Source: Acidobacteriota bacterium (GTDB taxonomy: Bacteria > Acidobacteriota > UBA890 > WLXD01). From it: DNA of 64,000 nucleotides. The stretch lies in NCBI GenBank assembly GCA_963666215.2, contig CAXWPL010000005.1, positions 1,248,001 through 1,312,000 on the forward strand, in the 5' to 3' direction. Shown here piece after piece: positions 3-37,806 of the stretch. How positions within the stretch are numbered: the stretch's first letter is position 1; the number at the start of each line of letters is the position of its first letter. The translations under genes were made by a program, and so were the position numbers. The notes under the pieces are model-generated. The model had not been told where the DNA came from. It made no database searches and saw only the letters and a list, made by a program, of their open reading frames with translations.

Positions 3-338
3 CGGCGCGCCCCTGCAGGGGCACCGTTCGAATTAGATGGCGAGTTCCTCGAGTGCGGGGACCGCGATGACGTAGCCTGCCGCACACTTTGGGCGGCCGT
101 CATCCACAAGGCCATGAAAGACATGGCCTACGCGAGCGCCAAGCAAACCCAACTCGCCCTGTCCCCCAGCGAGCGCGAAAAGCTGCAACGGATCTACGAG
201 CTCGACGCTCCCGAGAACTTCTTCGAGAGTCCCTGGTTCGATGAGATCTGTCGCTATCTCGCGCTGTCGCCGTCGTGCATCCGTACAGAAATCCTGGCGC
301 GCTTCGCGACGCAGAACGGCGTACACAAACGGCTGTAG
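3..338 (+). CDS. Small uncharacterised protein, paralogue 1 (5'-truncated by the window edge)
   Basis: Frame is open from base 3: ...DVACRTLWAAVIHKAMKDM...NFFESPWFDEICRYLALSPSCIR; aligns by eye with 8260..8610 and 2006..2389. Confidence 0.75.
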   Translation, partial: RRAPAGAPFELDGEFLECGDRDDVACRTLWAAVIHKAMKDMAYASAKQTQLALSPSEREKLQRIYELDAPENFFESPWFDEICRYLALSPSCIRTEILARFATQNGVHKRL

Positions 339-389
339 TCCTCAGGCAGCCGTGCGTGAATGGCCGGCGCCATGGACGGTGAGCCCCTC

Positions 390-1025
390 CTAGCGAAGCC
401 GCTCGCCCTTGATCGGCGCAATCCCGGCCATGGCCTCGCGTGACCCGTGCCGCAATACGGAAATCCGCGTCGGTCGCAGAGGGCGGAACATCTCCTCGAT
501 CTCGCTCGTTGGTACGACGCGCGGTGTGAGGCCGGCGGATGAGGGCTCGAAGCGAAGACGATCCGCGCCAACGATGCTGTAGCGCAGCGGCGATGGTTGG
601 CCACGGCCATCGCCATCGAAAATCGCGAACAGCGTGCCGCCGGGGATCAGGCGGCTGCTCAACCAGCCGACAAGCTCGCTAGCTTCGCGCGGCGGCAACA
701 AGCCCATGACCGTCCAGCACAAGATGCCGCCAAAGCGGCGCCCCCGTCGCCCCAGCGCGTCGAGAGCCGCGAGGCCCGAGCGATCGACGGACTCCGACGA
801 GTCCAAAGCTTCCGCGTTGCGCCGCGCCACGTAGTCGTACGCCGCGATCTTGTGTCCGCGGCGGGCCCAGAACATCAGGTTGCTGGGCATTGTCGGCCCG
901 AGGTCGAGAACCTCCGCTTCGGGCCCCAGTCGGGCGACCATGGCCTCGAAGCGCTCGAACAGGTTCGAGGCGTACTCGCCCTCTGCAGCGCCCGAAGGCT
1001 CCGCCCCCGCGGTGCCAACCGTCAA
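390..1025 (-). CDS. Class I SAM-dependent methyltransferase-like protein
   Basis: EVLDLGP motif I, LIPGGTLFAIFD; directly downstream of bactofilin; start uncertain. Confidence 0.7.
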   Translation of the reverse strand: MTVGTAGAEPSGAAEGEYASNLFERFEAMVARLGPEAEVLDLGPTMPSNLMFWARRGHKIAAYDYVARRNAEALDSSESVDRSGLAALDALGRRGRRFGGILCWTVMGLLPPREASELVGWLSSRLIPGGTLFAIFDGDGRGQPSPLRYSIVGADRLRFEPSSAGLTPRVVPTSEIEEMFRPLRPTRISVLRHGSREAMAGIAPIKGERLR

Positions 1026-1055
1026 CGGTAGGACAGGTCGATCAAGGGCCGCGAC

Positions 1056-1640
1056 CTAGGCGTTCGCCTTGGCGGCTGCGGCAGGAGCCGGAGCCGAGGC
1101 GGTTGCTACGGCTTCGCTCTTGCGAGGTCCTGCGTCGGCACTGGCCTTGGCACGGGCCTCCGGCCTTGGCGCGGGCGTCGGGCGCGGGGCAGCGGTGTTC
1201 GCAACCGTCGCCGACTTCATGTCGACGCTGCCCTTGAAGAAAGCTCCATCTGTGATGTTGAGCGACGGCGTCTTCACGTTGCCGGTCAGCGAGGCGGTGG
1301 CTCCCAACACAACCGCCTCCACGGCGTGGACATCTCCATCGACGGTCCCTTCGATGAGAACGGTGTGTCCATGACCCACGGCCTTGACGCTGGCACCCTC
1401 GACAACTCGCAAGGTGCGACTCGAGCGGATCGTGCCCTCTATCCGGCCCTCAATCGTCAGATCTTCCTCAGAGGAGATCGTGCCGTTGACGGCGAGCTTG
1501 CTTCCGAGAACTGAGCCGCCAGTCGGGGCCCGCGCCGCAGCCCGCGCCGGCGTGGACGCTGGAGCGCTAGCTACAGCGGTGGATGTGGTTGCCGGTGCTG
1601 CCGGCTTCTGAGCTTCCTTTTCCTGATCGAACCAGCCCAT
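1056..1640 (-). CDS. Bactofilin (polymer-forming cytoskeletal protein, CcmA family)
   Basis: SVLGSKLAVNGTISSEEDLTIEGRIEGTI...LNITDGAFFKGSVDM beta-helix pattern; ATG at 1640 with GGAG RBS. Confidence 0.9.
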   Translation of the reverse strand: MGWFDQEKEAQKPAAPATTSTAVASAPASTPARAAARAPTGGSVLGSKLAVNGTISSEEDLTIEGRIEGTIRSSRTLRVVEGASVKAVGHGHTVLIEGTVDGDVHAVEAVVLGATASLTGNVKTPSLNITDGAFFKGSVDMKSATVANTAAPRPTPAPRPEARAKASADAGPRKSEAVATASAPAPAAAAKANA

Positions 1641-1870
1641 CTCGTTACTGCTCCTTACTGGGTGGACGCTCACAACAGCGCCAGCGAGTTGTGAGGGCGC
1701 CTCGAGGACGGTCCCGGCTCGCAACGCGGCTAGGTTATCCGGCCTTCACGGTGGAGGAAAGTGCCACGCGACACGAGGGCGCTGGAGACCGCCGCGAAGG
1801 TCGTTGGGGACTTCTGCAGCCCCCTGCGGCCGGCGCTGGACCCTCAAGTCCAGTGGCTCCAACAACTTGC

Positions 1871-1984
1871 AGGTATTAGTCACTATTAGTTATGATTAGT
1901 TAGTTAAAGTTTTTCTAACTTTCTATTAGTGCTATTTTAACATTAAAACGCTTTCGACTTATCTCTATAGCCATCGTTAGTCAC
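1871..1984. promoter_or_regulatory. AT-rich divergent promoter region with ATTAGT motifs at 10-bp spacing
   Basis: ATTAGT at 1875, 1885, 1895 and 1925, degenerate TAAAGT at 1905, GTTAGTCAC at 1976. Confidence 0.6.
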
Positions 1985-2005
1985 ACCAGCTACCGGAGAG
2001 ACCCC

Positions 2006-2389
2006 ATGTCGAGCAGCAACTTCCCCGTTCGCCGCACCAGCGCCCGCGCTCGGGCCCGCCTCCACGGCGAGTCCCTCCCCTCCGGCTCCGTACACGCCGC
2101 GCAGTACCTGACCGGGACCCCCGAGACCGTGCTTTGGGGCGAGGTGCTGTTGCGAGCGATCGATGACTTCAAGATCTACACGTCGCACCGCTCCGACCCC
2201 GAAGCCAATCCCGTCTCGCAGAAGACGCTGCGCTCGATACTCGCCGACGGTTGCGACCCGGAGTACTCGTTCTTCGGCAACAACACCGGCTTCGACGCGG
2301 TCTGCATGGTGCTCAACATCGAGCCCGACGTCATTCGCCGGCACCTACGCGGATGGGTAGACGAGATCGGCGACCAACTGCGTTACTAG
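2006..2389 (+). CDS. Small uncharacterised protein, paralogue 2
   Basis: GGAG RBS; LWGEVLLRAIDD...FFGNNTGFDAVCMVLNIEPDVIR shares the motif of the other two paralogues. Confidence 0.75.
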   Translation: MSSSNFPVRRTSARARARLHGESLPSGSVHAAQYLTGTPETVLWGEVLLRAIDDFKIYTSHRSDPEANPVSQKTLRSILADGCDPEYSFFGNNTGFDAVCMVLNIEPDVIRRHLRGWVDEIGDQLRY

Positions 2390-2467
2390 CCGCGTATAAT
2401 CGGCTCCCCGCTCATCCGAGGCGCGAGCTAGCGCTTGCGCCTCGCGACCCATCCGCGAGGAGTCATC

Positions 2468-2701
2468 GTGAAGATCCAGCTGACCTACTGCGCCGCTTGA
2501 AACTACGAACCCCAAGCCCTCAGTTTGACGGGCAAAATCGTTAGCGAGCTCAAGCAACGCCTCGACAGCATCACGCTCGTGCCGGCGGCCGGCGGCAAGT
2601 TCGAGCTCGAAGTCGATGGGTTGCTGATGTACTCCAAGCTCCAGACTCGCTCCTTCCCGGACGAAGACGAGATTCTCGAGCAGCTCCGCTCGCAGATTTG
2701 A
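2468..2701 (+). CDS. Rdx family (SelW/SelT/SelH-like) selenoprotein, 77 aa, CxxU motif
   Basis: GAGGAG RBS, GTG start, MKIQLTYCAA-TGA(2498-2500)-NYEPQA...PAAGGKFELEVDGLLMYSKLQTRSFPDEDEILEQL; SECIS-like hairpin 2516-2533. Confidence 0.88.
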
Positions 2702-4452
2702 GCCGGCCTCGAGGAGGCTCCAAGCCGGGCTGCCGATTCTCGAGTCCTTCAACCGCATTCGCGTTGGCGCTGTGCGCGGTGCTGGTACCCGCCGCGTGCG
2801 CCGCACCTGAGCCGGATTCACCGGCCGATGTCGTCTATCTCAACGCCGACGTCCACACGGCCGACGCGACCACTCCTCGGGCACAGGCGATCGCAGTCGC
2901 CGACGGACGTTTTCTCGCCGTCGGAACCAACGCGGAGGTCCGAGCACACATCGGTAGCTCGACGACCGTGATCGAAGCGGATGGAGCGACCGTCCTGCCG
3001 GGGCTCATCGACGGTCACGTCCACCTCGAGAGCGGCCTGTCACTCGTCCGCGGGGTCAACCTCTACGGCATACCCGACAAGCGCGAGTGGCTGCGCCTCA
3101 TCGGTGAGCGCGCCGCGGAGCTTCCCGCGGGAAGCTGGATCGTCGGTGGTCGCTGGGACCACACGCTGCTGCCGGGCGCCGAGTTCCCCACCCGCTTCGA
3201 CCTCGACGAAGTAACCCCCGAGCATCCCGTGGTACTGGGCGACGTCGACGGCCACAGCACGTGGGCCAATACCCTGGCGCTCGAGATTGCCGGCGTGACT
3301 GCCGACACCCCCGACCCGATGGGAGGCGAGATCCTCCACGACGCCAGCACCGGCGAGCCCACCGGGATCTTCTTGGAGACCGCCAACGGACTCGTGCGAC
3401 GTCACGTCCCACCCCTCGAGGGAGAGGACCGGCTCGAAGCTCTGGCCGACACGTTCCGACTGGCCAACAGCCTGGGCCTCACAGGCGCCCACAACATGAC
3501 GGGCATGTCGTCGCTCGACGACTACACCGAGCTGCTGGCCCGCGACGAGCTCACGCTGCGGATCTGGTTCGGCGCCACCGGGCTCGATGCCGAAAGCGCG
3601 CCTCGAGCGGCGGCTCGTCGAGACGAGCTCGCCGCGGAGCTGCAGGAGGTCACCGCGCAGCGTGGACCCACTCTCGAGTTCGGCTACTCCAAACAGATGA
3701 TCGACGGCGTGCTTTCGTCGCGCACCGCTGCGCTGCTCGAGCCCTATGCCGACGACACCTCGCGAAGGGGCCTTCCGCGGTACGAGCCGACGGAGTTCGA
3801 CGAGCGTATCGAGGCGGTGGCTGCTGCCGGGTTCCCGATCGCCATTCATGCGATCGGCGACGCCAGCGTACGCTTCTCTCTTGACGCGCTCGAGCGGGCT
3901 CAGCAACAGCTCGGCGCCCCGCGCCGGCCGCATCGCCTGGAGCACATCGAGGTCATCAACGAGGACGACGTCCCTCGCTTCGCTGCGCTGGGCATACTCG
4001 CCTCGATGAACCCGCACCACTGCATCACCGGCATCGACGTCTACAACACCGACCGTCTCGGCGAAGATCGCGCCGGCTGGTCGTTCGCCTGGGGCAAGCT
4101 GCGAGACGCCGGAGCCACGCTCGTCTTCGGCACCGACTGGGCCACGGCGCCGCTCGACCCGCTGCGCCAACTCTACGCCGCCACATTGCGTGAGAAGCCA
4201 GGTGGCGGGCCGGCCGGAGGATGGCACCCCGAGAACCGGGTGACCTGGGACGAGGCGCTCGCCGCGTACACGATTGCACCAGCACGCGCCGCGGGCTGGG
4301 ACGGTGAGATCGGCAGCATCACGGTGGGCAAACGCGCCGACTTCGTCGTTCTCGATGATGCCTTGCCGACCCCGATCGACCGCGGAATCCTCGACCGTAG
4401 CGTCGTCGCCACGTATCTCGGCGGCACGCCGGTGTTCGAAACGGGTCGCTAG
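2698..4452 (+). CDS. Amidohydrolase (amidohydro_3 / YtcJ-like), probably exported
   Basis: LPGLIDGHVH, HAIGD, RLEHIE, GTDW, GSITVGKRADFVVLD; N-terminal hydrophobic segment ending in a Cys. Confidence 0.9.
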   Translation: MSRPRGGSKPGCRFSSPSTAFALALCAVLVPAACAAPEPDSPADVVYLNADVHTADATTPRAQAIAVADGRFLAVGTNAEVRAHIGSSTTVIEADGATVLPGLIDGHVHLESGLSLVRGVNLYGIPDKREWLRLIGERAAELPAGSWIVGGRWDHTLLPGAEFPTRFDLDEVTPEHPVVLGDVDGHSTWANTLALEIAGVTADTPDPMGGEILHDASTGEPTGIFLETANGLVRRHVPPLEGEDRLEALADTFRLANSLGLTGAHNMTGMSSLDDYTELLARDELTLRIWFGATGLDAESAPRAAARRDELAAELQEVTAQRGPTLEFGYSKQMIDGVLSSRTAALLEPYADDTSRRGLPRYEPTEFDERIEAVAAAGFPIAIHAIGDASVRFSLDALERAQQQLGAPRRPHRLEHIEVINEDDVPRFAALGILASMNPHHCITGIDVYNTDRLGEDRAGWSFAWGKLRDAGATLVFGTDWATAPLDPLRQLYAATLREKPGGGPAGGWHPENRVTWDEALAAYTIAPARAAGWDGEIGSITVGKRADFVVLDDALPTPIDRGILDRSVVATYLGGTPVFETGR

Positions 4453-4481
4453 GCCAGAGAATCATCAGTCGGACGGATCGC

Positions 4482-5333
4482 CTAGTAGAACTGGCAGCCA
4501 GGGCAGTAGAAGGAGGATCGGCCGGCCTGCACGACGCGTCGGATTGTGCGCGCGCAGCGACGACAGGCTTCGCCTTCTCTGCCGTAGGCCATGAGATCGA
4601 GCGCGAAGTAGCCGAGGTTTCCATCGAGGTCATGGAAGTCGCGGAGAGTCGTGCCACCTGCCTCGATGGCACGGCTCAGCACCTCTACACAAGCGTCGTA
4701 GATTCGGCCCCAGCGCAGGGCCGAAATGCGCCTGACTGGGACTGCCGGATGAACGCGCGCGAGCCACAACGCCTCGACTGCGTAGATGTTCCCCACACCC
4801 ACAACGATCCGCGCATCCATCAAGAAGTTCTTGAGTGGGCGCCGCGAGTGCCGCGAGGCTACCTGCAGGTAGGTGGAAGAGAAATCGGGGCCGAGAGGCT
4901 CGGGCCCGAGATGAGCCAGCAGTCCATGCTCCGAGAGCCGGGCCGACGCTGCCACCTCGACCAAACCGAAGCGACGTGGGTCGCGGAAGCGGAGCTCGAG
5001 AGAGGCCACACTATCGTCACCCAACCACCAGCGAACGTGGTCGTGCGCGCCCAGCGGAACGACCTCACAATCCGGCGTGGCGTGTAGCAGTCTGAGACTG
5101 CCGCTCATACCCAGGTGTAGCAGGATCGAGCTGCCGCGATCGAGAGAAAAAACGAGGTACTTGGCGCGCCGCTGAACTTCAGTAAAACGCGCGCCCACCA
5201 GTCGGCGCAACGCGGCAGTCGGAACTCGCCTCCGGAGCGACGGCTGGCGCACTTCCACGTGCTGCAACTGAAGCCCGCACATTCGAGGGGCCAAGCCGCG
5301 TCGGATCGTTTCGACTTCTGGCAGCTCGGGCAT
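4482..5333 (-). CDS. mutM: Formamidopyrimidine-DNA glycosylase
   Basis: MPELPEVET N-terminus, HLGMSG, DPRRFG, GVGNIY, C-terminal Zn finger. Confidence 0.97.
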   Translation of the reverse strand: MPELPEVETIRRGLAPRMCGLQLQHVEVRQPSLRRRVPTAALRRLVGARFTEVQRRAKYLVFSLDRGSSILLHLGMSGSLRLLHATPDCEVVPLGAHDHVRWWLGDDSVASLELRFRDPRRFGLVEVAASARLSEHGLLAHLGPEPLGPDFSSTYLQVASRHSRRPLKNFLMDARIVVGVGNIYAVEALWLARVHPAVPVRRISALRWGRIYDACVEVLSRAIEAGGTTLRDFHDLDGNLGYFALDLMAYGREGEACRRCARTIRRVVQAGRSSFYCPGCQFY

Positions 5334-5367
5334 GACAACGTCAATCAGAACACGCCAGACATACGGA

Positions 5368-5394
5368 GGGCGGGAGCTACCCTAGCCCCCGCCC
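5368..5394 (-). terminator. Hairpin between the histone-like gene and mutM
   Basis: GGGCGGGAGCTA-CCC-TAGCCCCCGCCC stem with one mismatch; no clear U-tract. Confidence 0.4.
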
Positions 5395-5421
5395 GCGTAC
5401 GTTGCCTTAGGCGTCGCCGAC

Positions 5422-5607
5422 TTACTTCTTTTTCCGCGTCGCCTTTTTCTTAGCGGCCTTCTTCGGGGCAGCCTTCTTCTTGGCGGCCTTCTTCTTCGGC
5501 GCAGCCTTCTTCTTGGCTACCTTCTTCTTCGGCGCAGCCTTCTTCTTGGCTACCTTCTTCTTGGCCGGGGATTTCGCTGCCGACTTCTTGGCGTTTCTTA
5601 CCGCCAT
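5422..5607 (-). CDS. Lys/Ala-rich histone H1-like nucleoid protein
   Basis: MAVRNAKKSAAKSPAKKKVAKKKAAPKKK... repeats; purine-rich RBS upstream. Confidence 0.8.
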   Translation of the reverse strand: MAVRNAKKSAAKSPAKKKVAKKKAAPKKKVAKKKAAPKKKAAKKKAAPKKAAKKKATRKKK

Positions 5608-5659
5608 TGTGTTGCCCCTTTCTCCTACCACCCTAGGAGGGTTCCCCCCCACGGAGCCA

Positions 5660-5827
5660 GGCCGTCAGTCGCCGGAAGAGTATGTGCGGACAGCAATCTG
5701 GCCTAGCTCGGCCAGAGTCGAGCCGACAAGCGCCGCCGCCGTTTCCGTCAGCGACTCCGGAACACGGCTCTCGTGCGGGCGTTACCATGCAAAGGTCGGG
5801 GGAACAACCCCGATCTCAGAAGTGAGC
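5660..5827 (-). mobile_element. Scrambled IS481 left-end fragment (decayed copy or consensus artefact)
   Basis: Ordered blocks CGCCGCCGCCGTTTCCGTCA, TCGTGCGGGCGTTACCATGCA, GAACAACCCC and GATCTCAGAAGTGAGC match the copy at 19856-20922. Confidence 0.7.
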
Positions 5828-6111
5828 GTGTCACCGTTCCCCCCCACGGAAACCGATGTCGCCGGAAGAGTATGTGCAACTGGCTAGGGAGAGTAAAGCG
5901 ACTCCAACACGAAAAGGGGGCGACCGGCGGTCACCGTTGAGGCCACATTTGTCGAGGCGCGGACTCTGCGTCCGACCGATCGACTCATCCAAGCGCATGT
6001 TGGCGACCCCATCGAAACTCAACCGCGTCGCGTCCGTGCTTAAGGTTGTCACCGGCAACCCCATCGCGCCGCGGTGATCGGCTCCCTAGTACCTACCCTA
6101 CGAAACACCCT

Positions 6112-6620
6112 ATGCCCAACCCCCATCGCCGCCCGAGGCTCACTTCGATCCTTCCTCTACTGCCGCTGCTCGTGGTCGCGACCTCGAGCGCTTGCGGACC
6201 GGCCGACACGTCGGCAGCAGCCACCAGCCTGGCACCGGTTAACGAGGCCAACACCGAGGCCGCTCAGGTCGCCAAGACCCTGTAGCCGTTGTGGTCGAGG
6301 CGGTGACCAGCGGGGCGATGACCTCTTGGGTCGCGACGTCCGGGAATCTCGAAGCGGTGGAGAGGGTCGACGTGCTCGCCAAGGTCCCTGGTCAGATCGA
6401 CGCTCTACACGCGGAGGAGGGCCAACGGGTGGCCGACGACGAGCCGCTGCTCGAGCTCGATCCCAATGAGTATCGCCTCGCGGGCGATCGCGCAGAGGCC
6501 GAGATGCTCAAGAAGGAGGCCGACCTGGCGCGCTCCGATCGCATGCACGAACAAGGCGTCATCTCCAAGCAGGACTACGGCCAGGCACAGTACGACTTGA
6601 GGCACGCACAGCTCTCGAGA
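6112..6620 (+). pseudogene. Efflux RND periplasmic adaptor subunit, frameshifted near 6283 and truncated
   Basis: Lipoprotein-like N-terminus, then in another frame SGNLEAVERVDVLAKVPGQIDALHAEEGQRV..EPLLELD; no C-terminal half. Confidence 0.75.
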
Positions 6621-6785
6621 TCGACATTCGCTTTCAGCTCGAGAAGGCCGATCGGGCTCGCTCATCACTCCGCTAGCGGCGCCGCTGACGCTCGAGGAAG
6701 CGGAGCGCGCGGTTCCGGCTAGCTAGCGACCTCCAGGTCTTCCCTGGTGTCGAGGGGTTGCGAGGTTGGAGATTGCTGCTCGAGC

Positions 6786-7838
6786 TCAGTTCAGCTCGAG
6801 GCGGTCGGCGATGAAGCGGCCGGTCGCCTGCCGTGTCGCACGCGAGATCATCAAGCTGATGTGGCCGTGCGGTACCCACCACACTCCGCACCCCCAGCCC
6901 GCCGCCGAGCGCGCAAGTCCACGTCTCCCGACAACGTTGTCGTAGCGCGCTCCCACAACCAGCACCCGGTCGCGCGGCACCGCCAGCGGCCGCCGAGCCG
7001 CCCGGTAGTGATGGAACATGCTAGCGGCCTGCTCGCGATCAATGCCCGCTTCGGCGAGCGCCCTGCAGATTGGAGTCGCGATCGGCGAGCTCCAAACCGT
7101 TTCGGCCGGCTCGACCACGGGCGCCCACAGCGCGACCGCATCCCAGCTGGCGCTCAGCGAAGCGCCGAGCGCGGCCACCCAACCACCCAGGCTCATCCCC
7201 CAGAGCGCCACCCGCGAGTAGCCCCTACGCCGAAGCCAGGCCTCGAGCCACAGCAGCTCAGCTACAGCGCGTTGCAGAGCCTGCGCGGTGGCACCGATGT
7301 CTGCCGAGAGGCAGCGTTCGCCCGACAGCGAGCCTGGCGGTGTGCGCTCTGCATGCTCCGGAAGACGGGGCATCCAGATGTCGCATCCCTGTCCACGCAG
7401 CGGTGTCGCCAGCGACCGGAAGTACGGCATATGGGAGCGCGTGGCCAACCACCCGTGCAGCAGCACGAGCGCCGTGCGTCCCCCTTCGCCTCCCCGCTCA
7501 GGGCCGCCAACTGAAGCTCGATATGAGGAGCTCGCGACCGAGCGTGAGATCGAGCTCTGGGACGAGCGCGCCGGCGTCGCCTTGTGGCAACTGGCCACCC
7601 AACCCGTGCCCTCGTCGTGCCAGAGCTCGGTGGCGCCATCCGGGCCCCACCCACGACCGTCGCCGTCGATACGCCGCGGCGCCGCCGGATCGAACGCACG
7701 GGGCCCCTGAAAGCCGTGCTCTCTCCAAGGATCCGACTGCAGCTCCGACATGGTGGGGGTGGGCTGCCGCCGGCCGATTCGGGCCCGCACCACTGCCACG
7801 TTCACCCAGTCGAGAATCTCCCCCGACCACCGCCCCAT
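6786..7838 (-). CDS. Alpha/beta hydrolase
   Basis: LVLLHGW, GMSLGG nucleophile elbow, ARYDNVV, HGH; start uncertain (7751 possible). Confidence 0.8.
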   Translation of the reverse strand: MGRWSGEILDWVNVAVVRARIGRRQPTPTMSELQSDPWREHGFQGPRAFDPAAPRRIDGDGRGWGPDGATELWHDEGTGWVASCHKATPARSSQSSISRSVASSSYRASVGGPERGGEGGRTALVLLHGWLATRSHMPYFRSLATPLRGQGCDIWMPRLPEHAERTPPGSLSGERCLSADIGATAQALQRAVAELLWLEAWLRRRGYSRVALWGMSLGGWVAALGASLSASWDAVALWAPVVEPAETVWSSPIATPICRALAEAGIDREQAASMFHHYRAARRPLAVPRDRVLVVGARYDNVVGRRGLARSAAGWGCGVWWVPHGHISLMISRATRQATGRFIADRLELN

Positions 7839-8127
7839 TTCCGCCGAACCCTTCGTGTGTCAAGAGAGAGGCCGCTTACACCCGCGCCCATCCAACCATG
7901 AAAATTCGCGACAACAGAGAAACTTTTTGGGAACCCGGGCGTCTAACTGAACTAAAGCGGTCAAGGGCGCGCTGGCTCTGTCCTGTGATGGACGTAAAGG
8001 GGAGCGGCCTGGGGCTGGGGCTGGCGCGCCGTTGATCGCTTTGCCTTACTCCGGCGGTGCTCGTTGGTTGACGAGCAACACCGGGTATTGCGAACAGCGA
8101 GCGTGGGTCCCCACCCTGCGGGAAAAG

Positions 8128-8143
8128 TGGCATACCGCTTGCA
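8128..8143 (+). promoter_or_regulatory. Sigma54 (-24/-12) promoter
   Basis: TGGCATACCGCTTGCA with exact GG-N10-GC spacing, in a ~420-bp intergenic region upstream of 8260. Confidence 0.7.
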
Positions 8144-8259
8144 CATGCAAGTCGGTATATCGAACGGACCGAACGGAAGGACAGCACAGATCCAGACGGA
8201 CCGGACTCGAACACACAAACAAGCGCCAAATGCTCCCCCGCCTTGGTGAGGTCGAAATC

Positions 8260-8610
8260 ATGCAAATCAGCCGCTGCCCAAAAAAATCGAAAGGTCAGCT
8301 CGACGCAGTCTTCGAGGCCGAGCGCGACCAGTTCACCGACGGCCAAAAAGACGTGCACGCGTGCCGGCAGCTGTGGCGCACGGTCATCCATCGCACGGTC
8401 GACGACATGCGGTTCCTACGCACGCATCGCCGTGCGGCCGGACGATTGAAGAAGCACGAAGAGGAGCGCCTTCGTCGCATCCGCGAGAATCCGCCCCACG
8501 AGTTCATTCAGGGCAAGTGGTTCGAACAGATCTGCGACTACCTGCAGGTGAGTCCGACCCGCGTACGACGCGCCATCCAAGCTCTCGAGGCGAACGCCGA
8601 GGCCGCCTGA
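8260..8610 (+). CDS. Small uncharacterised protein, paralogue 3
   Basis: GAGGT RBS, ATG 8260; DVHACRQLWRTVIHRTVDDM...FIQGKWFEQICDYLQVSPTRVR. Confidence 0.8.
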   Translation: MQISRCPKKSKGQLDAVFEAERDQFTDGQKDVHACRQLWRTVIHRTVDDMRFLRTHRRAAGRLKKHEEERLRRIRENPPHEFIQGKWFEQICDYLQVSPTRVRRAIQALEANAEAA

Positions 8611-8641
8611 GCGTCGCGTCTTACCACGGAGCCAGCTCTCG

Positions 8642-8681
8642 AACGGGGGAAGCAGCAGCGCTGCTTCCCCCGTTTGCTTTT
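8642..8681 (+). terminator. Intrinsic terminator
   Basis: AACGGGGGAAGCAG-CAGCG-CTGCTTCCCCCGTT followed by TGCTTTT. Confidence 0.75.
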
Positions 8682-10766: not shown

Positions 10767-11769
10767 TGTGTTTTCTAAGTAGGTTGTTCACATCGGGGCT
10801 CACTTCTGAGATCAATGGGGTTGTTCAAAAGACTCCACGACCTCAGAAGGAGCGCCCGATGCAGCTGCATGGTAACGCCCGCACGATGCCGTATATACGC
10901 CGAGAGATGGTCCGCCGAGTCCGGGAGCGGGCGGAGCCCGTGACGGAAACGGCGGCGGCGCTCGGCGTGTCGGCTCGAACGGTTTACAAGTGGCTGGATA
11001 GATACGAGCGAGAAGGTGAGGCCGGGCTGCTCGATCGATCAAGCCGGCCGACGTGCTGTCCGCACGCAACAAGCGCTGGAGTTGTGAGGCAGATCGACAA
11101 GCTACGTCGGCGGCGACTGACGGCCTGGCAGATCAGCCGAAGGTTGGCTGTGCCGCGCTCGACCGTCTCGGCTGGCTGAAGCGGCTCGGACTCGCCAGCT
11201 TGATGCGCTCGAGCCCAAGCCCGAGATCGTTCGCTACGAGTACGAGCACCCCGGTGACCTACTGCACCTGGATACGAAGAAACTGGCCCGTATCCGGCGA
11301 CCTGGACACCGCATCCACGGCGACCGCTCCAAGCGGGCCTACGGCGTCGGCTGGGAGAACGCCCACGTCGCTATCGACGATCACTCTCGGGTGGCGTACG
11401 TCGAAGTGCTGCCCCTGAAGACCAACACACCTGCACAGCGTTCCTGCAGCGAGCCGTCGAGCACTTCGCTTCGATGGGAGTAGCGGTGCGCGAGTGATGA
11501 CAGACAACGGGCCTGGCTACGTCTCGAAGCGCTTCAATCTATGCCACCTCGAACGCACATTTACACCCGGCCCTACACCCCCAGAACCAACGGCAAAGCC
11601 GAACGCTTCATCCGCACACTCAAGGAGCAGTGGGCCTACGGCACCTGCTACCAGACCTCAGCTCGACGTACTCGAGCTCTACGGCCCTGGCTCAACCACT
11701 ACAATCGTCACCGTCCCCACGCCGGCATCGGCATGACACCGCCGATCGCTCGGAGGGGTGAGTTCGTGA
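10767..11769 (+). mobile_element. IS481-family element, degenerate copy (frameshifts, right end incomplete)
   Basis: Starts TGTGTTTTCTAAGTAGGTTGTTCAC after CCTAGT; near-identical to 19856-20922 with many small deletions. Confidence 0.9.
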
Positions 11770-11773
11770 GCCC

Positions 11774-14398
11774 CTAGTCGGACTCCTGCGGTGGGAAGAT
11801 CGCGTTGAAGATCACCTTGAACGTGTGGTGCGCCTGAGCGCGATACTCGGGCGAGAATCCGACACGGATCACGCGACCCTGTCCCACTCGGTTCTCGAGC
11901 AGAGCGCTGTTGCCAGCCAGACGTTCCTCTCCTTGGATCCAGCCGCTGAGTAGTAGATCGGAGCTCGGGTAGGTGGCGACGCTGGTCGCCTGCTCACCGG
12001 CGGGCGACCAGAAGGGGCTGTTCCAGTAGAAGATCGGCGTCTCGGGCGTCAGCCCGAAACCGAGCGGGTGGTCCACGTCGACCTCTACACGCAGCAGCGA
12101 GCCGGGGATGTTGAACTCGGTGCGCGACAGCCCCGTCCCCAGGCTGTCACCGGATGCGCCCAGATGCTGCGAGGCGAAGCCGGTGGCACGGCCCCAGGTG
12201 AACACCGTGCCGCCCTCCTCGACATACGCTCGCAGCATCGCCACACCCTCCTCGCCCAGCCCGCCGGCGTACTGCGGTGGCGCGGCGGCAGTCTGGCGTC
12301 CGCGGGAGTTGCTCGGGGTCGCCGAGCGCCCGTCGACGATAGCCGTGGAGCTGTTGTCGGGTACGAAGATCACACCGAATCGCGCCAGGTCGCCGGCGCG
12401 GATGTCGTCGTCGTGCAGAACCTCGAACGGGATCTGGTGCTGATCGAGGACGAACCGCAGCCAGCCCTCCGGCATGCTCGCGACGTAGCTCTGGTAAATC
12501 CCTACGGCCGGCGGACCTACCCAGCCCTTGGCGACGCCGGGAAGCCTGGCCACTCCGAACGCTCGCACATGGTGCTTACGCACGGCCGCCGCAAGCTCCT
12601 GCCGCACGAGAATCCCATCAGCGCCGGCGGGCAGCTGTTGTATCCAAGTTCCCGCGGGCCAAGCGCGCCCCGCTGCCTCGAAGCCGCGCGTCGATCGTGA
12701 CAGACTGCGGCCCCCCATTGCCGCCGCTACGCTGTAGGAGTTGTTAACCTGCGGATCCATCAGATACGCCACGGCCGCGTCGGTGCCTGCGGGCTCAACC
12801 AGGCCGCCGGCCGGCGCCATCACCGTCTCGACGAGCTCGGCGGCAACGTCGAACGCGGCATCAACGCGATCGACACGCACGTTCATCAGCATAGGTAGCG
12901 TGTGCGCGGTGACGTCGTACGGCGGGTCGAGCGGTCCCCCTTCGTAGAGGTAGAGCTGCGGGTATTCCTGACGCTCCAGCACGCTCTTGGCAAAACGGCC
13001 GGCCGGCTGGGCGAAACGAACGATGTGTGATCCGGCAGCATAGTCGCGACCACCGGCGCGGAACGCCGCCCCAGCGCGCTCGATGTCGACATCGGCGATC
13101 TGCAGCACCTTGAGCAACTTCGCCGTGACCGGCGGATCAACCTGATTGGCCGGCAGCACGAAGGCGAATGGCGGATCGCTCGAAAGATCAGGCTCGACTG
13201 AACGACGCTGGGCAGCGTACATCCCCGCTAGCAGATGCTCACGTAAATCGGCCGCGGCACGAAGCGCCGCCATTGCCGAGGTGTAGTGGTAGTCGACCAC
13301 CTCCGAGAAGCGCCACGTGCCGCCCTGCCACGGCATCGGGAAATACCAGTGCCGCTCCTGATGCGTCGAGCCGATGGCCTCGAACGGGACCTCGATGTCG
13401 TCGGCGAAGTTCGCGCTAGCGACCTCGGTGAGAATCCGCACGCCGCCGTGCGTGTGGTAGTAGGCCCGGGCCGGCGTCCACGCGTCGTAGCGCTGCTTCC
13501 ACTCCACACCCGCATAGCCGCGCGCGGTGAGGTACTGGCCCATGAAGGCGCCGATCATGTTGTTCGAGGCCTGAATCGCCGGATCGACATTGGGCTCCCA
13601 CGGATCCTCGAACGGAGGCACGAAGATGCGCGAACCCGTCGAGCCTTGCTGATGCTGATCGAGCGTGAATTGGGGGTGCAGCAGGTTCTGCATCTGAATC
13701 GACAGCCGCGTCTCGACCTGCGTAAACATGTACCAGTCGCGGTTGTTGTCGTGGCCGACATACTTCTGGTAAAGGAACGGCGGCTGTGAGTTCTCGTGCT
13801 CCGTGCCGCGATAACGATCGAGCCACTCGTAGACCATCTCCTGGCCGTCCGGGTTGTGCACCGGAACGTGGGCGACGACGACGTTCTCGAGAATCTTCTC
13901 GACCTCGGCGTCGGTACCCGTCGCCAGCCGATGAGCGAGCAGAATGCCGCCCTGCGACGCACCGACCTCGGTCGAATGAATCTGCCCGTTGACGATGACA
14001 AACGAAGGGTTCGAGGCAATGATCGCTTGGGCCTCCTCGTCGCCAACGCCGCGCGGATCGTAGAGCTTGTCGTTGGCTTCGATGAGCTCATCGAGGCGAG
14101 CGAGATTCTCGGGCGACGAGACCAGCGCGTAGTAGAAGGGCCGAAGCTCGGTTGTGCGCCCAACCTGTCGCAGCTGCACCCGATCGGTACGCTCCGCCAG
14201 CACCTCGTAGTAGCGCAGGATCTCGGAGTGCGGAATCAGCACGCCGGCCGCGCCGATGGTGCGCCCAAAGAACTCGGCGGGGGTCGGGATTGCCGACTGC
14301 TGACTGCCGACGCTCGCCGGCGGCCCGCCACCCAGCCCCAGAACGAGCAGGAGGACGAGGACGGAAGGACGCATACGGCGCATACGGGAGGCTCTCAT
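11774..14398 (-). CDS. M14 zinc carboxypeptidase-family protein, secreted
   Basis: Signal peptide, IHSTE, HNPDG, HDNNRDW, DQHQQG, PYDVTAHTLP, C-terminal GATase-like domain. Confidence 0.9.
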   Translation of the reverse strand: MRASRMRRMRPSVLVLLLVLGLGGGPPASVGSQQSAIPTPAEFFGRTIGAAGVLIPHSEILRYYEVLAERTDRVQLRQVGRTTELRPFYYALVSSPENLARLDELIEANDKLYDPRGVGDEEAQAIIASNPSFVIVNGQIHSTEVGASQGGILLAHRLATGTDAEVEKILENVVVAHVPVHNPDGQEMVYEWLDRYRGTEHENSQPPFLYQKYVGHDNNRDWYMFTQVETRLSIQMQNLLHPQFTLDQHQQGSTGSRIFVPPFEDPWEPNVDPAIQASNNMIGAFMGQYLTARGYAGVEWKQRYDAWTPARAYYHTHGGVRILTEVASANFADDIEVPFEAIGSTHQERHWYFPMPWQGGTWRFSEVVDYHYTSAMAALRAAADLREHLLAGMYAAQRRSVEPDLSSDPPFAFVLPANQVDPPVTAKLLKVLQIADVDIERAGAAFRAGGRDYAAGSHIVRFAQPAGRFAKSVLERQEYPQLYLYEGGPLDPPYDVTAHTLPMLMNVRVDRVDAAFDVAAELVETVMAPAGGLVEPAGTDAAVAYLMDPQVNNSYSVAAAMGGRSLSRSTRGFEAAGRAWPAGTWIQQLPAGADGILVRQELAAAVRKHHVRAFGVARLPGVAKGWVGPPAVGIYQSYVASMPEGWLRFVLDQHQIPFEVLHDDDIRAGDLARFGVIFVPDNSSTAIVDGRSATPSNSRGRQTAAAPPQYAGGLGEEGVAMLRAYVEEGGTVFTWGRATGFASQHLGASGDSLGTGLSRTEFNIPGSLLRVEVDVDHPLGFGLTPETPIFYWNSPFWSPAGEQATSVATYPSSDLLLSGWIQGEERLAGNSALLENRVGQGRVIRVGFSPEYRAQAHHTFKVIFNAIFPPQESD

Positions 14399-19855: not shown

Positions 19856-20922
19856 TGTGAGTTCTAGGTAGGTTGTTCACGAACTCACCCCTGAGAGCCG
19901 AGCGATCGGCGGTGTCATGCCGATGCCGGCGTGGGGACGGTGACGATTGTAGTGGTTGAGCCAGGGCCGTAGAGCTCGAGTACGTCGAGCTGAGGTCTGG
20001 TAGCAGGTGCCGTAGGCCCACTGCTCCTTGAGTGTGCGGATGAAGCGTTCGGCGAGTGTGCGGATGAAGCGTTCGGCTTTGCCGTTGGTTCTGGGGGTGT
20101 AGGGCCGGGTGTAAATGTGCCGGATCTCGAGTTGATGGCATAGGCGATTGAAGCGCTTCGAGACGTAGCCAGGCCCGTTGTCTGTCATCACTCGGCGCAC
20201 CGCTACTCCCATCGAAGCGAAGTGCTCGACGGCTCGCTGCAGGAACGCTGTGCAGGTGTGTTGGTCTTCGGCGGGCAGCACTTCGACGTACGCCACCCGA
20301 GAGTGATCGTCGATAGCGACGTGGGCGTTCTCCCAGCCGACGCCGTAGGCCCGCTTGGAGCGGTCGCCGTGGATGCGGTGTCCAGGTCGCCGGATACGGG
20401 CCAGTTTCTTCGTATCCAGGTGCAGTAGGTCACCGGGGTGCTCGTACTCGTAGCGAACGATCTCGGGCTTGGGCTCGAGCGCATCAAGCTTGGCGAGTCC
20501 GAGCCGCTTCAGCCACGCCGAGACGGTCGAGCGCGGCACAGCCAACCTTCGGCTGATCTGCCAAGCCGTCAGTCGCCGCCGACGTAGCTTGTCGATCTGC
20601 CTCACAACTCCAGCGCTTGTTGCGTGCGGACAGCACGTCGGCCGGCTTGATCGATCGAGCAGCCCGGCCTCACCTTCTCGCTCGTATCTATCCAGCCACT
20701 TGTAAACCGTTCGAGCCGACACGCCGAGCGCCGCCGCCGTTTCCGTCACGGGCTCCGCCCGCTCCCGGACTCGGCGGACCATCTCTCGGCGTATATACGG
20801 CGTCGTGCGGGCGTTACCATGCAGCTGCATCGGGCGCTCCTTCTGAGGTCGTGGAGTCTTTTGAACAACCCCATTGATCTCAGAAGTGAGCCCCGATGTG
20901 AACGACCTACTTAGAAAACACA
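19856..20922 (-). mobile_element. IS481-family insertion sequence, complete
   Basis: Imperfect terminal IRs TGTGAGTTCTAGGTAGGTTGTTCAC / GTGAACGACCTACTTAGAAAACACA; CTAG on both flanks. Confidence 0.93.
19877..20830 (-). CDS. IS481 transposase (with an 8-aa tandem duplication)
   Basis: HGNARTT, LLHLDTKKL, MTDNG, PRTNGKAERF, YNRHRPH. Confidence 0.93.
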   Translation of the reverse strand: MQLHGNARTTPYIRREMVRRVRERAEPVTETAAALGVSARTVYKWLDRYEREGEAGLLDRSSRPTCCPHATSAGVVRQIDKLRRRRLTAWQISRRLAVPRSTVSAWLKRLGLAKLDALEPKPEIVRYEYEHPGDLLHLDTKKLARIRRPGHRIHGDRSKRAYGVGWENAHVAIDDHSRVAYVEVLPAEDQHTCTAFLQRAVEHFASMGVAVRRVMTDNGPGYVSKRFNRLCHQLEIRHIYTRPYTPRTNGKAERFIRTLAERFIRTLKEQWAYGTCYQTSARRTRALRPWLNHYNRHRPHAGIGMTPPIARLSGVSS

Positions 20923-21031
20923 CCTAGGGCTCCGATTGTCGCTCGCCTCGGGCGCGTCCGGCAATCTGTGGACGGCACGATTGTACGCCGCCGCGATCGT
21001 GTCACGGCGGTCGCGGTAACGTTGCCGCTTC

Positions 21032-28899: not shown

Positions 28900-29574
28900 T
28901 CATGCCGCCTTGAGCACCGAGCGCACGTACTCGAACCGCCAGGGTGAGCCGTTGCGGGTGGTGAAGCCCTGCTGGTTGAGCTCGTCGGCGATAGTGCGCA
29001 GGGTGTGACCTTGGCCTCGGAGATCGCGCAGGTTGTGGAGTACCCGCTGCTCGGCGGGGCTCTCCTCCAGGGCGACACCACCAGCGGCGAGTTGATAGCC
29101 GAATGGCACCGTTCCAACTCGCTCCCCGCGGGCCTTCTTTGCCTGGAGGGCATCGCGGGTGCGCTCACCTATGACCTCGCGTTCCCACTGCCCCACCGAC
29201 ACCATGATGTTGAGCACCAGCCGACCGGCGGCGGAGCTCGTATCTAGCGACTCGGTGACACTGACCAGGGCAACCCCGCAGCGGTCGAAGAGGTCGAGCA
29301 GATCGGCCAGATCTCGAACCGAGCGGGTGAGGCGGTCGAGCTTGTGGACGATGACGGCATCCACCTTGCGAGCCTTCACCAGATCGAGGAGCCGAGCGGC
29401 GCTAGGTCGGTGCAGAGACTTTGCCGACTCGCCAGCATCGACGAGTACATCGACGAGCTCGTAGTCGCCGATCTCGGCGGCAGCGCGGATCTTGCGCTGC
29501 TGGAGCTCTAGGCTCTCGCCAGTCTCGGCCTGGTCGGTGGTGGAGACTCTCGCGTATCCGATGGCGATGGGCAT
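28900..29574 (-). CDS. Serine recombinase (resolvase family with short C-terminal recombinase domain)
   Basis: GYARVSTTDQ, DAGESAK, KLDRLTRS, DTSSAAGRL, EREVIGERT, PFGY. Confidence 0.93.
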   Translation of the reverse strand: MPIAIGYARVSTTDQAETGESLELQQRKIRAAAEIGDYELVDVLVDAGESAKSLHRPSAARLLDLVKARKVDAVIVHKLDRLTRSVRDLADLLDLFDRCGVALVSVTESLDTSSAAGRLVLNIMVSVGQWEREVIGERTRDALQAKKARGERVGTVPFGYQLAAGGVALEESPAEQRVLHNLRDLRGQGHTLRTIADELNQQGFTTRNGSPWRFEYVRSVLKAA

Positions 29575-29578
29575 TGCC

Positions 29579-29788
29579 TCACCCCTTCATGCGCCGCTTG
29601 GCGAGCTCGTCCACGAGTCGCCGATCAGCGGTGTTGAGGTTCTTGTCGAGGAGCAGATCCACGGCCTGCTCGACGAGCTTGTACATGGGCTCCCCGGTGA
29701 CCTCGGCAGCGGCCCGCAAACGGGCTCGGAGCTCGGGATGCATCCGGGTGGTGAACACGGGTAGGTCGATGACTCTTTCGGCTCCCAT
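29579..29788 (-). CDS. Small ribbon-helix-helix-like DNA-binding protein
   Basis: VFTTRMHPELRARLRAAAEVTGEPMYKLVEQAV; directly upstream of the recombinase. Confidence 0.6.
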   Translation of the reverse strand: MGAERVIDLPVFTTRMHPELRARLRAAAEVTGEPMYKLVEQAVDLLLDKNLNTADRRLVDELAKRRMKG

Positions 29789-30208
29789 GATGTACAGAGT
29801 GTATCACATGAATTCATGCTTTCAAAGCGGTGATGATCCCCTACCTGCTCGTCTATTGAGACGAGGAGACGAGGAGATCTTGGGATGTAACCGACCGGTT
29901 GTATCCCAAAGGGGGTGAACAGGGGGGGTCACCGAAGAAGGAGTGGACGCGCTCTACATCCTTCCTTCGGCTTAGATAGAGGGGGCAGATATGTTGCCGA
30001 GAGGCCTACTTGTGATGATGATGATCGCGGCGGTGGCGGTGCCCACCTTTTCAGAAGAGAAGAGCGAGCCATAAACCGCCGCGATAGTGGCTGGACCGTC
30101 GAGCTGTTGGTAGCGTGGCCAAATCTGCGTCCGCTTTTTCTTGCCGGTCTTCTCGTCCTTCGCCTCCGCCAGCTCGGACAGTTCCTTCGGCTGGCTGGAC
30201 AGACTCGA

Positions 30209-30237
30209 CTAGTTGAATGACAATGTCATTCAACTAG
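30209..30237. promoter_or_regulatory. Toxin-antitoxin operator palindrome
   Basis: CTAGTTGAATGACA-A-TGTCATTCAACTAG immediately before the dinJ RBS. Confidence 0.75.
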
Positions 30238-30247
30238 GAGATTACAC

Positions 30248-30511
30248 ATGCCTGCAAATAAACTCGTCCAGGCCCGCATTGACGGGGCCGTCAAGGAAGA
30301 AGCGACGGCCGTGCTGGCCGCCATGGGCCTGACGGTCTCCGACGCGGTGCGGTTGCTGTTGACCAGGGTGGCGCGGGAGAAGGCCCTACCATTCGCGCCG
30401 TTGGTCCCCAACGCCGTCACCATCGAGGCGATGAAGGAAGCCCGCCAGGGCAACCTCCCGCAGTTCGCCAGCGTCGAGGACCTGCTCGACGATCTACATG
30501 CGGACGATTGA
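30248..30511 (+). CDS. dinJ: RelB/DinJ antitoxin
   Basis: VQARID..VKEEA..VLAAMGLTVSDAVRLLL...LPF...PNAVTIEAM. Confidence 0.92.
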   Translation: MPANKLVQARIDGAVKEEATAVLAAMGLTVSDAVRLLLTRVAREKALPFAPLVPNAVTIEAMKEARQGNLPQFASVEDLLDDLHADD

Positions 30512-30779
30512 GCGTACCAATCAGTTCAAGCGCGACTACAAGCGTGAGTCCAGGGGCCGGCATCGGACAGACCTCGATGCCAGTCTGACGCTCATCGTGG
30601 AGGTCCTGGCCAACAACAAGCCGCTTGAACCTCGGCACTACGACCACGCACTAAGCGGCGAGTGGGGAGATCACCGTGACTGCCACGTGAAACCGGACCT
30701 GGTGCTGATCTACCAGAAGTCCGGCGCCGACACCCTGCGCCTGGTGCGCCTCGGGTCACATGCGGAACTAGGTCTATAA
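30498..30779 (+). CDS. yafQ: YafQ mRNA interferase toxin
   Basis: QFKRDYKR, DHALSGEW, RDCHVKPDLVLIY, LVRLGSHAEL. Confidence 0.93.
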   Translation: MRTIERTNQFKRDYKRESRGRHRTDLDASLTLIVEVLANNKPLEPRHYDHALSGEWGDHRDCHVKPDLVLIYQKSGADTLRLVRLGSHAELGL

Positions 30780-30912
30780 CGCGGAACGACGAAGCGCCAG
30801 GTAGGGCGCGTTCGGCGCACGGCACTGGCCCACGCGCTTGACGTCTGCGAGACAGAGAATCAGACACGGGATACGACACACGGCGCCGCTCGTCTGAAGG
30901 CGCCCTCGCCGG

Positions 30913-30940
30913 TGTGTCGCAAACGGCCGTTTGCGACACA
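30913..30940. repeat. Perfect 28-bp palindrome, candidate res site
   Basis: TGTGTCGCAAACGGCCGTTTGCGACACA; further GACA half-sites at about 30850-30880. Confidence 0.7.
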
Positions 30941-31050
30941 GGCGGATCGGTGACGCCCGCGTCTCGAAGGGGCGGACGGCTCCGATGATATCCAGAACAT
31001 GGATCCTGCTTGCGGCACTCATGTACAACCACGCCGCCCTGGGGCCGTTA

Positions 31051-31095
31051 CAGGGGCGCTCAGGGGATCTCAGGGGATCTCAGGGGCCTCAAGGG
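31051..31095. repeat. 10-bp tandem repeat (CAGGGGATCT-like, 4 copies)
   Basis: CAGGGGCGCT CAGGGGATCT CAGGGGATCT CAGGGGCCTC. Confidence 0.7.
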
Positions 31096-31882
31096 TTCGT
31101 CGTAGATTGTGGATGGCTCTCGGGACGCCGGCGTCCACTTCGCGCCATAAGAGATCGGGACCGTGGTAGCGACCATCGGCCGCTTGGAACCCAAACCCTC
31201 CGCACCCTCCGCCCTGGAGACGCGCGGCCAGTTCGCAGCGGAGCTCGTAGGCACGCACGACGGCCTGGGCAGCCTCCAACAGCGAGGCCGGGGGGGCGGC
31301 CGTCGGGCCGCGGTAGCTCGTCCCTGCGATCTCCGGGCGCGCCTCGTACGCTTCGACGGCCGCGACGGCCGCGGCAGAGAGCCCGAACGCCTCGCCGACG
31401 CGGCACGGCGCCCACGCCGACTTCGGCCCGGCGCGGTCAGGCCATGGATTCGCCCGCTCGCCGGTTCGCCGCGCGCGATCCTCGCTGTCTACCGTGATTT
31501 CCGCGAAGAGCGCGCTCAGCCGGTGGAGCTGTTCGTCGGTGGCACCGGCCAGGAAGTCTGGCTCGGGGTCCGGCAAGGGTTCTGGAGCCGCCGCGCGGAG
31601 CTCGTAGGCCGCGCGGAGCTCGTAGGCGAGCGTGGCCGCGCGCAGCGCCGCCGCGAGCGACTGGGGCGAATCGGGGTTAGCAATGAACACCGCGGCCTGC
31701 CGGAGCGTGGCCTCGCACAGGCCGGGCACGTCAGACGGCACGGTCGCCGCGGCCAGGGCGTCAGGCGCCGACGGGGACGCCGCCTCGGTCGCGTCTACCA
31801 CCTGTGCACGGTGCCGCGCCCGCCGGCGCCGCTGGGCCGCGGTGTTCGCCTGCCGCTGAGCCGTGGGGTCCGCGTAGGGCAT
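31070..31882 (-). CDS. Hypothetical protein, very GC-rich
   Basis: 270-aa ORF, basic N-terminus MPYADPTAQRQANTAAQRRRRAR, 18-bp tandem duplication at 31590-31625. Confidence 0.5.
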   Translation of the reverse strand: MPYADPTAQRQANTAAQRRRRARHRAQVVDATEAASPSAPDALAAATVPSDVPGLCEATLRQAAVFIANPDSPQSLAAALRAATLAYELRAAYELRAAAPEPLPDPEPDFLAGATDEQLHRLSALFAEITVDSEDRARRTGERANPWPDRAGPKSAWAPCRVGEAFGLSAAAVAAVEAYEARPEIAGTSYRGPTAAPPASLLEAAQAVVRAYELRCELAARLQGGGCGGFGFQAADGRYHGPDLLWREVDAGVPRAIHNLRRTLEAPEIP

Positions 31883-32870: not shown

Positions 32871-33029
32871 AAACGAGACCGGCCACGGGGCAGACCCCGC
32901 AAGCGCTAGTCCGAAATGTGGTTTCGACTTATCCCGCCAAATTCGGTACGCTGGAAGCGTACTGGAACTACGGCGTATCAGAATTGTGTTCGCCTTTTGT
33001 TCGTCTGTAGGGAATGGAGGGTTGCCAAG

Positions 33030-33864: not shown

Positions 33865-33870
33865 ATCATC

Positions 33871-37459: not shown

Positions 37460-37469
37460 TCTTGCTCAG

Positions 37470-37721: not shown

Positions 37722-37806
37722 GAAGAAAACTCGGCGAGTCGGCCTCTACTCGGTGTCCGTGGAGGATCATTGTAGTTGGATGAGCTTCTCTAGTCAACTC
37801 TAAATG

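Follow-up and report, generated by a model that had tools for sequence, protein, structure and literature searches.

Streptomyces BldC and phage Xis are MerR-like winged-helix proteins that bind direct repeats and form filaments on them. Among the activators of Gram-positive phages, the DUF1492 protein LtrB is a late-gene activator that also binds direct repeats, and the portion of the source consulted here gives the Ltr proteins as the only phage proteins that the tested phages required to activate terS (PMC3753634). We analyzed a 64,000-nucleotide (nt) stretch of the genome of an Acidobacteriota bacterium (GCA_963666215.2, contig CAXWPL010000005.1, positions 1,248,001 to 1,312,000; hereafter the window), which contains three open reading frames (ORFs) for small related proteins, copies 1, 2 and 3, all on the forward strand (Table 1). 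Their family is catalogued only as a phage cluster of unknown function, PHROG 7024. The conserved arrangement of three paralogues, one of them preceded by a promoter inside a lattice of 10-bp repeats, appears to be undescribed. We propose, at slightly below an even chance, that the three are helix-turn-helix (HTH)-like, DNA-binding transcription regulators, each with a different type of promoter.

Relatedness and age of the three copies

An earlier note, made from the letters of the window, had described the three ORFs as paralogues of an unrecognised protein. Coordinates, strand and common motifs were borne out by inspection (LWAAVIHKAMKD, LWGEVLLRAIDD and LWRTVIHRTVDD in the three copies; further stretches FDEICRYLALSPSCIR, FDAVCMVLNIEPDVIR and FEQICDYLQVSPTRVR). 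The second motif given for copies 1 and 3 is present, but it reads ExE[KR]LxRI and not E..L.RI. Pairwise BLASTP alignments were significant, with E-values of 4e-17 (copies 1 and 3), 4e-7 (2 and 3) and 1e-7 (1 and 2). Smith-Waterman scores were 159, 68 and 75, which none of 5000 shuffles reached in any pair; the top unrelated frame of the 1222 in the window scored 42–47. The paralogy is thereby confirmed. Comparison against the same 1222 frames revealed no fourth copy in the 64 kb.

A profile built from the three proteins, as the earlier note had suggested, found 149 matches at E ≤ 0.001 among representatives of 50%-identity clusters. P0044 and P0128 were removed as false matches, and P0004, a database protein with 14 extra N-terminal residues, was removed as a near-duplicate of copy 1. 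Over 183 aligned rows the core reads L-W-x-x-V-I-x-x-A-x-x-D ... F ... F-x-x-I-C-x-x-L ... P-x-x-I-R, with Asp and Cys each conserved in 99%, Phe in 97% and Arg in 89% of rows. The Arg lies at profile column 95 in the last helix and occurs in all three copies; this helix is near-invariant inside each orthologous group and differs between groups. Copy 3 has 34 relatives at 63–74% identity, its own cluster not counted.

That the proteins belong to no named family holds for Pfam (no match above cut-off) and NCBIfam (no match), and when PDB sequences were searched with three profiles, a designed repeat protein was the only match below E 0.001. The family nevertheless includes PHROG 7024 and is wider than this lineage: 34 of 139 members match PHROG 7024 at E ≤ 0.001, and HHalign of the family profile against eight of its phage members gave 95.4% and E 1.8e-8 over 55 columns, from the first helix to an FFxSxW motif. 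Single copies match at E 0.007 (copy 1) and E 0.009 (copy 3); the copy 2 group alone gave no significant match and is joined to PHROG 7024 via the other two. The closest Atlas clusters are unnamed and in part viral. DUF6280 (PF19796), a lead from an Atlas feature score of 0.86, was rejected since 0 of 139 members match it at E 0.01. Only seven proteins were found when aligned distant members served as the query. The phage connections were reached via distant family members, and tblastn of copy 3 and P0107 against GenBank phages gave no match. No publication on the family was found in the open literature, where an unnamed family is hard to find by words, and it is not among the nine heliusvirus markers in the part of PMC11283538 consulted.

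One scan of GTDB genomes with the copy 2 alignment provided 14 loci (12 Acidobacteria/Acidobacteriota, 2 uncultured bacteria). Synteny with bactofilin and mutM, which the earlier note had proposed to examine, is extensive: bactofilin is the divergent neighbor of copy 2 in all 14 loci and mutM lies near copy 2 in nine. A methyltransferase-like gene follows bactofilin in 13, a copy 1 orthologue is found at the same position in 11, and an Rdx gene lies 3' of copy 2 in 11. Most of the misses are places where the fetched DNA ends; in locus L002, about 1 kb past the methyltransferase-like gene is without a copy 1 match. The copy 3 orthologue was found in one of the 14 loci (L001), and two more stop just short of the expected site.

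In a FastTree tree of 174 domains and 84 columns, each copy falls into a separate group (support 0.96, 0.97 and 0.94), and the three groups do not join in one clade; the tree lacks a true root and its backbone is weak. The proportion of non-synonymous differences (pN) was 0.13–0.18 against a synonymous proportion (pS) of 0.61–0.76 for copy 1 (5 pairs), 0.10–0.12 against 0.49–0.63 for copy 2 (6 pairs) and 0.21 against 0.65 for copy 3 (one pair). Every one of the 12 pairs has a pN 3–6 times below its pS, and also below the pN of mutM. Judged by these values the three genes are under purifying selection. The copies are old, maintained paralogues in separate orthologous groups, neither a recent expansion, as "expanded family" in the earlier note could be read, nor debris.

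The last point bears on the possibility that the copies are decaying prophage remnants with no present function. Phage-rich clusters commonly include the family, and near the copies there are a truncated efflux gene and an insertion sequence (IS) fragment. In addition to the low pN, position and promoters are conserved in up to 14 genomes, GC content at third codon positions (0.77–0.87) is that of host genes, and a Pfam scan found host genes around the copies and no phage genes flanking them. Selection and synteny largely refute this explanation, and we regard it as highly improbable.

Control regions of the three genes

The claim that at least two copies have distinct control regions was confirmed, and these regions are conserved in relatives. 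The copy 1 promoter lies outside the window because the window edge cuts the gene. All 11 relatives carry a TAGACA-like -35 element, a spacer of 16–17 nt and a TAnnnT -10 element in GC-rich DNA, from which an ordinary sigma70-type promoter is predicted for copy 1.

Copy 2 does follow a phased AT-rich array: no other 140-nt stretch of the 64 kb is as AT-rich as positions 1861–2000 (GC 0.34), and their 10-bp periodicity (z 3.8) is the highest among the 20 most AT-rich stretches of the window. The 160 nt upstream of copy 2 have a GC content of 0.24–0.40 in the window and all 14 loci (15/15), and lag-10 autocorrelation was z 11.8 for the pooled regions and z ≥ 2 in 12 of them. The -35 box of the predicted promoter is TTGACA in 13 of 14 relatives. 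Its -10-like element TAnnTnT has TA at positions 1–2 and T at position 5 in 15/15 and T at position 7 in 14/15, but no more than 2/15 have T at position 6; the copy 1 promoters of the relatives have the normal TAnnnT. The motif learned from these regions, NTWTTAGTCA, recurs on a lattice whose sites extend, counted from the first base of the -35 box, from about 75 nt on its 5' side to 47 nt on its 3' side. One of these sites coincides with the -35 box in most relatives, a point that is partly circular because the training regions contain the box. Clusters of the motif occur in the window only at 1873, 34910 and 36630, and none was found there before copy 3 or the histone-like gene. The lattice lies 230–340 nt upstream of the divergent bactofilin start, and an effect on bactofilin is conceivable.

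For copy 3 the earlier note had claimed a sigma54 promoter and a terminator of its own. The exact consensus TGGCA-N6-TTGCW of the putative promoter has a single occurrence in the window, upstream of copy 3, and was found in 6 of 100 shuffles. The sole match in the 14 Acidobacteriota-type loci is again upstream of the copy 3 orthologue, in L001. The terminator stands in part: the hairpin (8641–8675) folds well and a similar GC-rich hairpin follows copy 3 in L001, but the T tail is imperfect and a consensus terminator scan of the window did not list it.

Table 1. Features of the three copies and their control regions in the window
Feature	Position	Strand	Remarks
Copy 1	3..338	+	5'-truncated by the window edge; complete protein about 125 amino acids (aa)
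Bactofilin (ATG 1640) and methyltransferase-like genes	390..1640	-	Between copies 1 and 2; syntenic
AT-rich, 10-bp-phased lattice of NTWTTAGTCA-like repeats	1873..1983	+	Spans the copy 2 promoter
Predicted sigma70-type promoter of copy 2	1937..1966	+	TTAACA, 17 nt, TATCTCT (1960–1966); inferred
Copy 2	2006..2389	+	127 aa; GGAGAG at 1995–2000 upstream; 14 related loci, 54–85% identity
Sigma54 -24/-12 consensus TGGCATACCGCTTGCA	8128..8143	+	117 nt upstream of the copy 3 ATG
Copy 3	8260..8610	+	116 aa; basic, isoelectric point (pI) 9.8
Terminator-like GC-rich hairpin, imperfect T tail	8641..8681	+	3' of copy 3; folds well

Close to copy 3 we also noticed a conserved non-coding hairpin of about 120 nt (7935–8055, forward strand), 75–190 nt upstream of the sigma54 site. 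It is 84% identical in L001 and also present in L007; of 36 predicted pairs five are changed on both sides, and the apical GATGGACGTAAAGGGGAGCGGCCTGGGG is invariant. Comparison with Rfam gave no meaningful match. It is probably an undescribed structured RNA.

Several other features lie near the copies. An Rdx/SelW-family gene (2468–2701, forward strand) has an in-frame TGA at 2498–2500 in a CxxU-type motif; the TGA is kept in 11 of 11 relatives reaching the gene, and L014 has TGA at both motif positions. The gene is a probable selenoprotein gene, which standard ORF calling splits. An operon of copy 2 and this gene was rejected as a general rule: the gap is 48–142 nt in 7 of 12 sequences but 1.4–1.8 kb in 5 of 12. 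A lysine/alanine-rich histone-like ORF with KKKAA repeats (5422–5607, reverse strand) has no Pfam match, and similar ORFs follow mutM in L001, L007 and L013. At 6110–6722 (forward strand) an efflux periplasmic adaptor gene is interrupted by a stop (6283–6285) and truncated; its position is occupied by a homologue in L002, L004 and L014. A transposase-like sequence at 10856–11777 (forward strand), IS481 type by eye, is split over several frames, and a longer IS481-type ORF spans 19880–20923. Mobile-element genes are mainly located at 28–41 kb and 56–62 kb, with resolvase, YafQ, IS1595, a Panacea-domain antitoxin, DUF3987, a primase zinc finger and an integrase at 28900–40740, and HicB, an integrase, GP88 and Replic_Relax at 56290–61640.

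Predicted fold, phage neighbors and alternative explanations

The models suggest a helical core composed of a long first helix (LWxAVIxxAxxD) and a C-terminal HTH-like pair (WFxxICxxL-turn-PxxIR), with a helical hairpin inserted between them in the copies studied here. Copy 3 was modelled as all-helical (predicted local distance difference test, pLDDT, 90.6; helices 12–57, 65–76, 79–84, 86–94 and 99–115) and a compact 76-aa relative as four helices (pLDDT 87.1), both without strands. Residues 34–116 of copy 3 align with near-whole homeodomains over 49–54 residues (Z 3.1–3.9, root-mean-square deviation, rmsd, 3.0–4.7), and residues 88–111 weakly match four HTH Pfam models (E 0.03–0.17). The Foldseek run on predicted structures, proposed in the earlier note, yielded nothing at E 0.001 in PDB or BFVD; the weak list for the compact model is headed by homeodomains (E 1.6 and up). 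In the structure search the best VIA Z was 7.3 for copy 3 (rmsd 9.1, a long-helix match) and 5.4 for the compact model, none reaching 8. Among the best 50 rows of the wide structure search there was no sigma region 2 or 4 domain, families beyond those rows staying possible. The homodimer prediction for copy 2 scored 0.00, which counts neither for nor against. Altogether the models are compatible with, but do not establish, an HTH-like core of three helices into which a hairpin is inserted.

The longer relatives agree with the regulatory reading, as their partner domains are regulatory: of seven scanned, three have an extra HTH and one, above cut-off, a PilZ domain. The conserved lattice and promoter of copy 2 also speak for it, as does the overlap of the phage family gene with a gene of the DUF1492/Sigma70_r4 type, described below. 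A search restricted to fused forms of 390–2000 aa found none and is uninformative because of that range. Of the "small helical regulators" of the earlier note, helicity is thus retained on the models and a regulatory role is most likely, but DNA binding is inferred. In the mechanism that we propose, each copy, a stand-alone gene, would have its own input: a sigma70-type promoter, a promoter buried in the lattice, and a sigma54 promoter with terminator. A protein would bind head-to-tail on one face of the DNA along the repeats upstream of copy 2, one helical turn apart. As the repeats resemble and include the -35 hexamer, bound protein would gate the access of RNA polymerase. The simplest candidate for the binder is copy 2 itself, acting by autoregulation, which we nonetheless rate as rather unlikely.

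A number of observations weigh against regulators of this kind. Copies 1 and 2 have a pI of 6.3 and 6.1 and a net charge of -1 and -2. The structural matches of copy 3 are weak, in the range that the tool terms a common arrangement, and those of the compact model to homeodomains reach Z 2.0–2.8 only. The HTH Pfam matches are far under cut-off and come from copy 3, neither of the other two copies having any. Three of the 15 upstream regions (L002, L006, L009) have little or no periodicity, an unrelated factor could bind the lattice instead, and no target gene was identified. In addition, the PHROG 7024 match ends before the would-be HTH segment, which in the phage members is seemingly about three residues shorter; these members also lack the conserved Cys. 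Finally, comparison of the family profile with LtrB/sigma-4 proteins was not significant (HHalign probability 1%). A cascade linked to the bactofilin and histone-like genes, as the earlier note had imagined, is unsupported: the synteny spans unrelated genes on both sides, and the lattice is absent before copy 3 and the histone-like gene.

The AT-rich phased DNA 5' of copy 2 would also suit small, strongly conserved nucleoid-associated proteins that coat AT-rich DNA loosely, with the lattice as nucleation site; a histone-like gene rich in lysine also belongs to this block. Two of the three copies are not basic, though, the lattice is rare (three clusters in 64 kb), and the sigma54 promoter would suggest conditional expression, which makes such an architectural role quite improbable.

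The neighbors of the phage relatives also point in two other directions. For the phage context we used 8 of the 14 records matching a PHROG 7024 protein, all from Bacillota phages; they are not independent because the phages are related to each other. In all eight the family gene overlaps a downstream regulator gene of DUF1492/Sigma70_r4 type by 4 nt, the regulator being recognised by Pfam in five, by a profile of those five in two and by eye in one. Two fully checked records have the order SNF2 helicase, family gene, regulator, HNH, terminase small subunit. The large gene 5' of the family gene was annotated or identified as an SNF2-type helicase in some of the eight, and is of similar size and unannotated in the others. 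By the profile comparison given above, the family is a neighbor of LtrB and not its homologue. The phage-type order (helicase, family gene, LtrB/sigma-4, HNH, terminase) was not encountered in the window, and no terminase gene was found among the scanned neighbors of the chromosomal copies.

The overlap invites the idea of a protein-binding transcription cofactor, with RNA polymerase, a sigma factor or an activator of the sigma-region-4 type such as phage LtrB as its docking partner, like a two-part sigma or an anti-activator. The neutral to acidic copies 1 and 2 and the conserved positions, mainly hydrophobic with one Asp and one Cys, would fit, and two-part precedents are described in the sections consulted of PMC10141391 (SigO-RsoA) and PMC11150451 (GafY-GafZ). 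Against it, an LtrB-like frame was detected neither in the window nor in the 14 loci, no member (0/139) has a sigma region 2 Pfam match at E 0.01, and four-base gene overlaps are frequent in phage operons. Moreover, no phage proteins besides Ltr were needed to activate terS in the tested phages, according to the part of PMC3753634 consulted. A cofactor of this type is a rather doubtful alternative.

Position 3' of a large SNF2-type or similar-sized unannotated gene in the eight phage records suggests instead an accessory protein that assists motors of DNA replication or remodelling, as a helicase partner or loader, with a chromosomal role in DNA metabolism. A fusion to AAA_25 in Wolbachia phage WO (34 bits) and mutM near copy 2 in nine of 14 loci agree with this. 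The chromosomal copies, however, stand alone behind regulated-looking promoters with neighbors that are not helicases, the PilZ and HTH fusions suit regulation better, and the WO fusion is one annotated record. We consider an accessory of this kind improbable.

Two observations concern the phage records themselves. In PV036423.1 (L021:2495–3150) the PHROG 7024 gene and the regulator on the forward strand are unannotated, and an opposite-strand ORF is annotated instead. In KX522565.1 (L015:4977–6173, gwv_1127) the family domain is N-terminal in the AAA_25 protein of phage WO, and it was matched in 8 WO records.

Returning to DNA-binding regulators, the most far-reaching version, which we consider unlikely, would be an undescribed class of phage-derived helical regulators that polymerise on arrays of -35-like hexamers one turn apart, in effect mimicking sigma70 region 4. 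One Acidobacteriota lineage would have kept three of them, one housekeeping, one self-limiting and one sigma54-driven, as a multi-input regulatory module, and many phages would use a member as partner of their late-gene activator.

Though found widely in phages and bacteria, the family has no name or function. This locus offers three vertically inherited paralogues under selection with readable promoters and a candidate binding site, the 10-bp lattice. If the proteins do read the -35-like repeats, they would represent a new type of promoter-gating factor and explain why many gut and Gram-positive phages carry a small conserved gene next to that of the late activator. Otherwise the family is one more conserved unknown.

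Comparison with known systems

PHROG 7024 has profile-level homology to the copies from the first helix to FFxSxW. Its phage members have 64–76 aa, lack the inserted hairpin and are encoded between helicase and LtrB gene, whereas the copies described here have 116–127 aa, are chromosomal and stand alone; copy 2 has no direct match to the phage cluster. The copy 3 model weakly resembles tri-helical HTH proteins of the homeodomain type in the arrangement of three core helices (Z 3.1–3.9 over about 50 residues), and the sequence pattern is HTH-like with a conserved Arg. The family differs by the long first helix, the inserted hairpin and the invariant Asp and Cys, and two of the copies are not basic.

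LtrB genes are the immediate neighbors of the family in phages, not members of it. In their way of working the Ltr/RinA/ArpU activators would be alike, as small proteins that act on direct repeats beside a promoter, according to the part of PMC3753634 consulted. The copies have no sigma-region-4-like or DUF1492 Pfam match (HHalign 1%), only copy 3 is basic, and they are not located upstream of terS. Sigma factors of the SigO-RsoA type differ in that 0 of 139 family members have a Sigma70_r2 or r4 match at E 0.01. BldC and Xis are winged-helix proteins, in contrast to the two all-helical, strandless models obtained here. What they would have in common with the mechanism proposed for the copy 2 lattice is head-to-tail binding on direct repeats about one helical turn apart.

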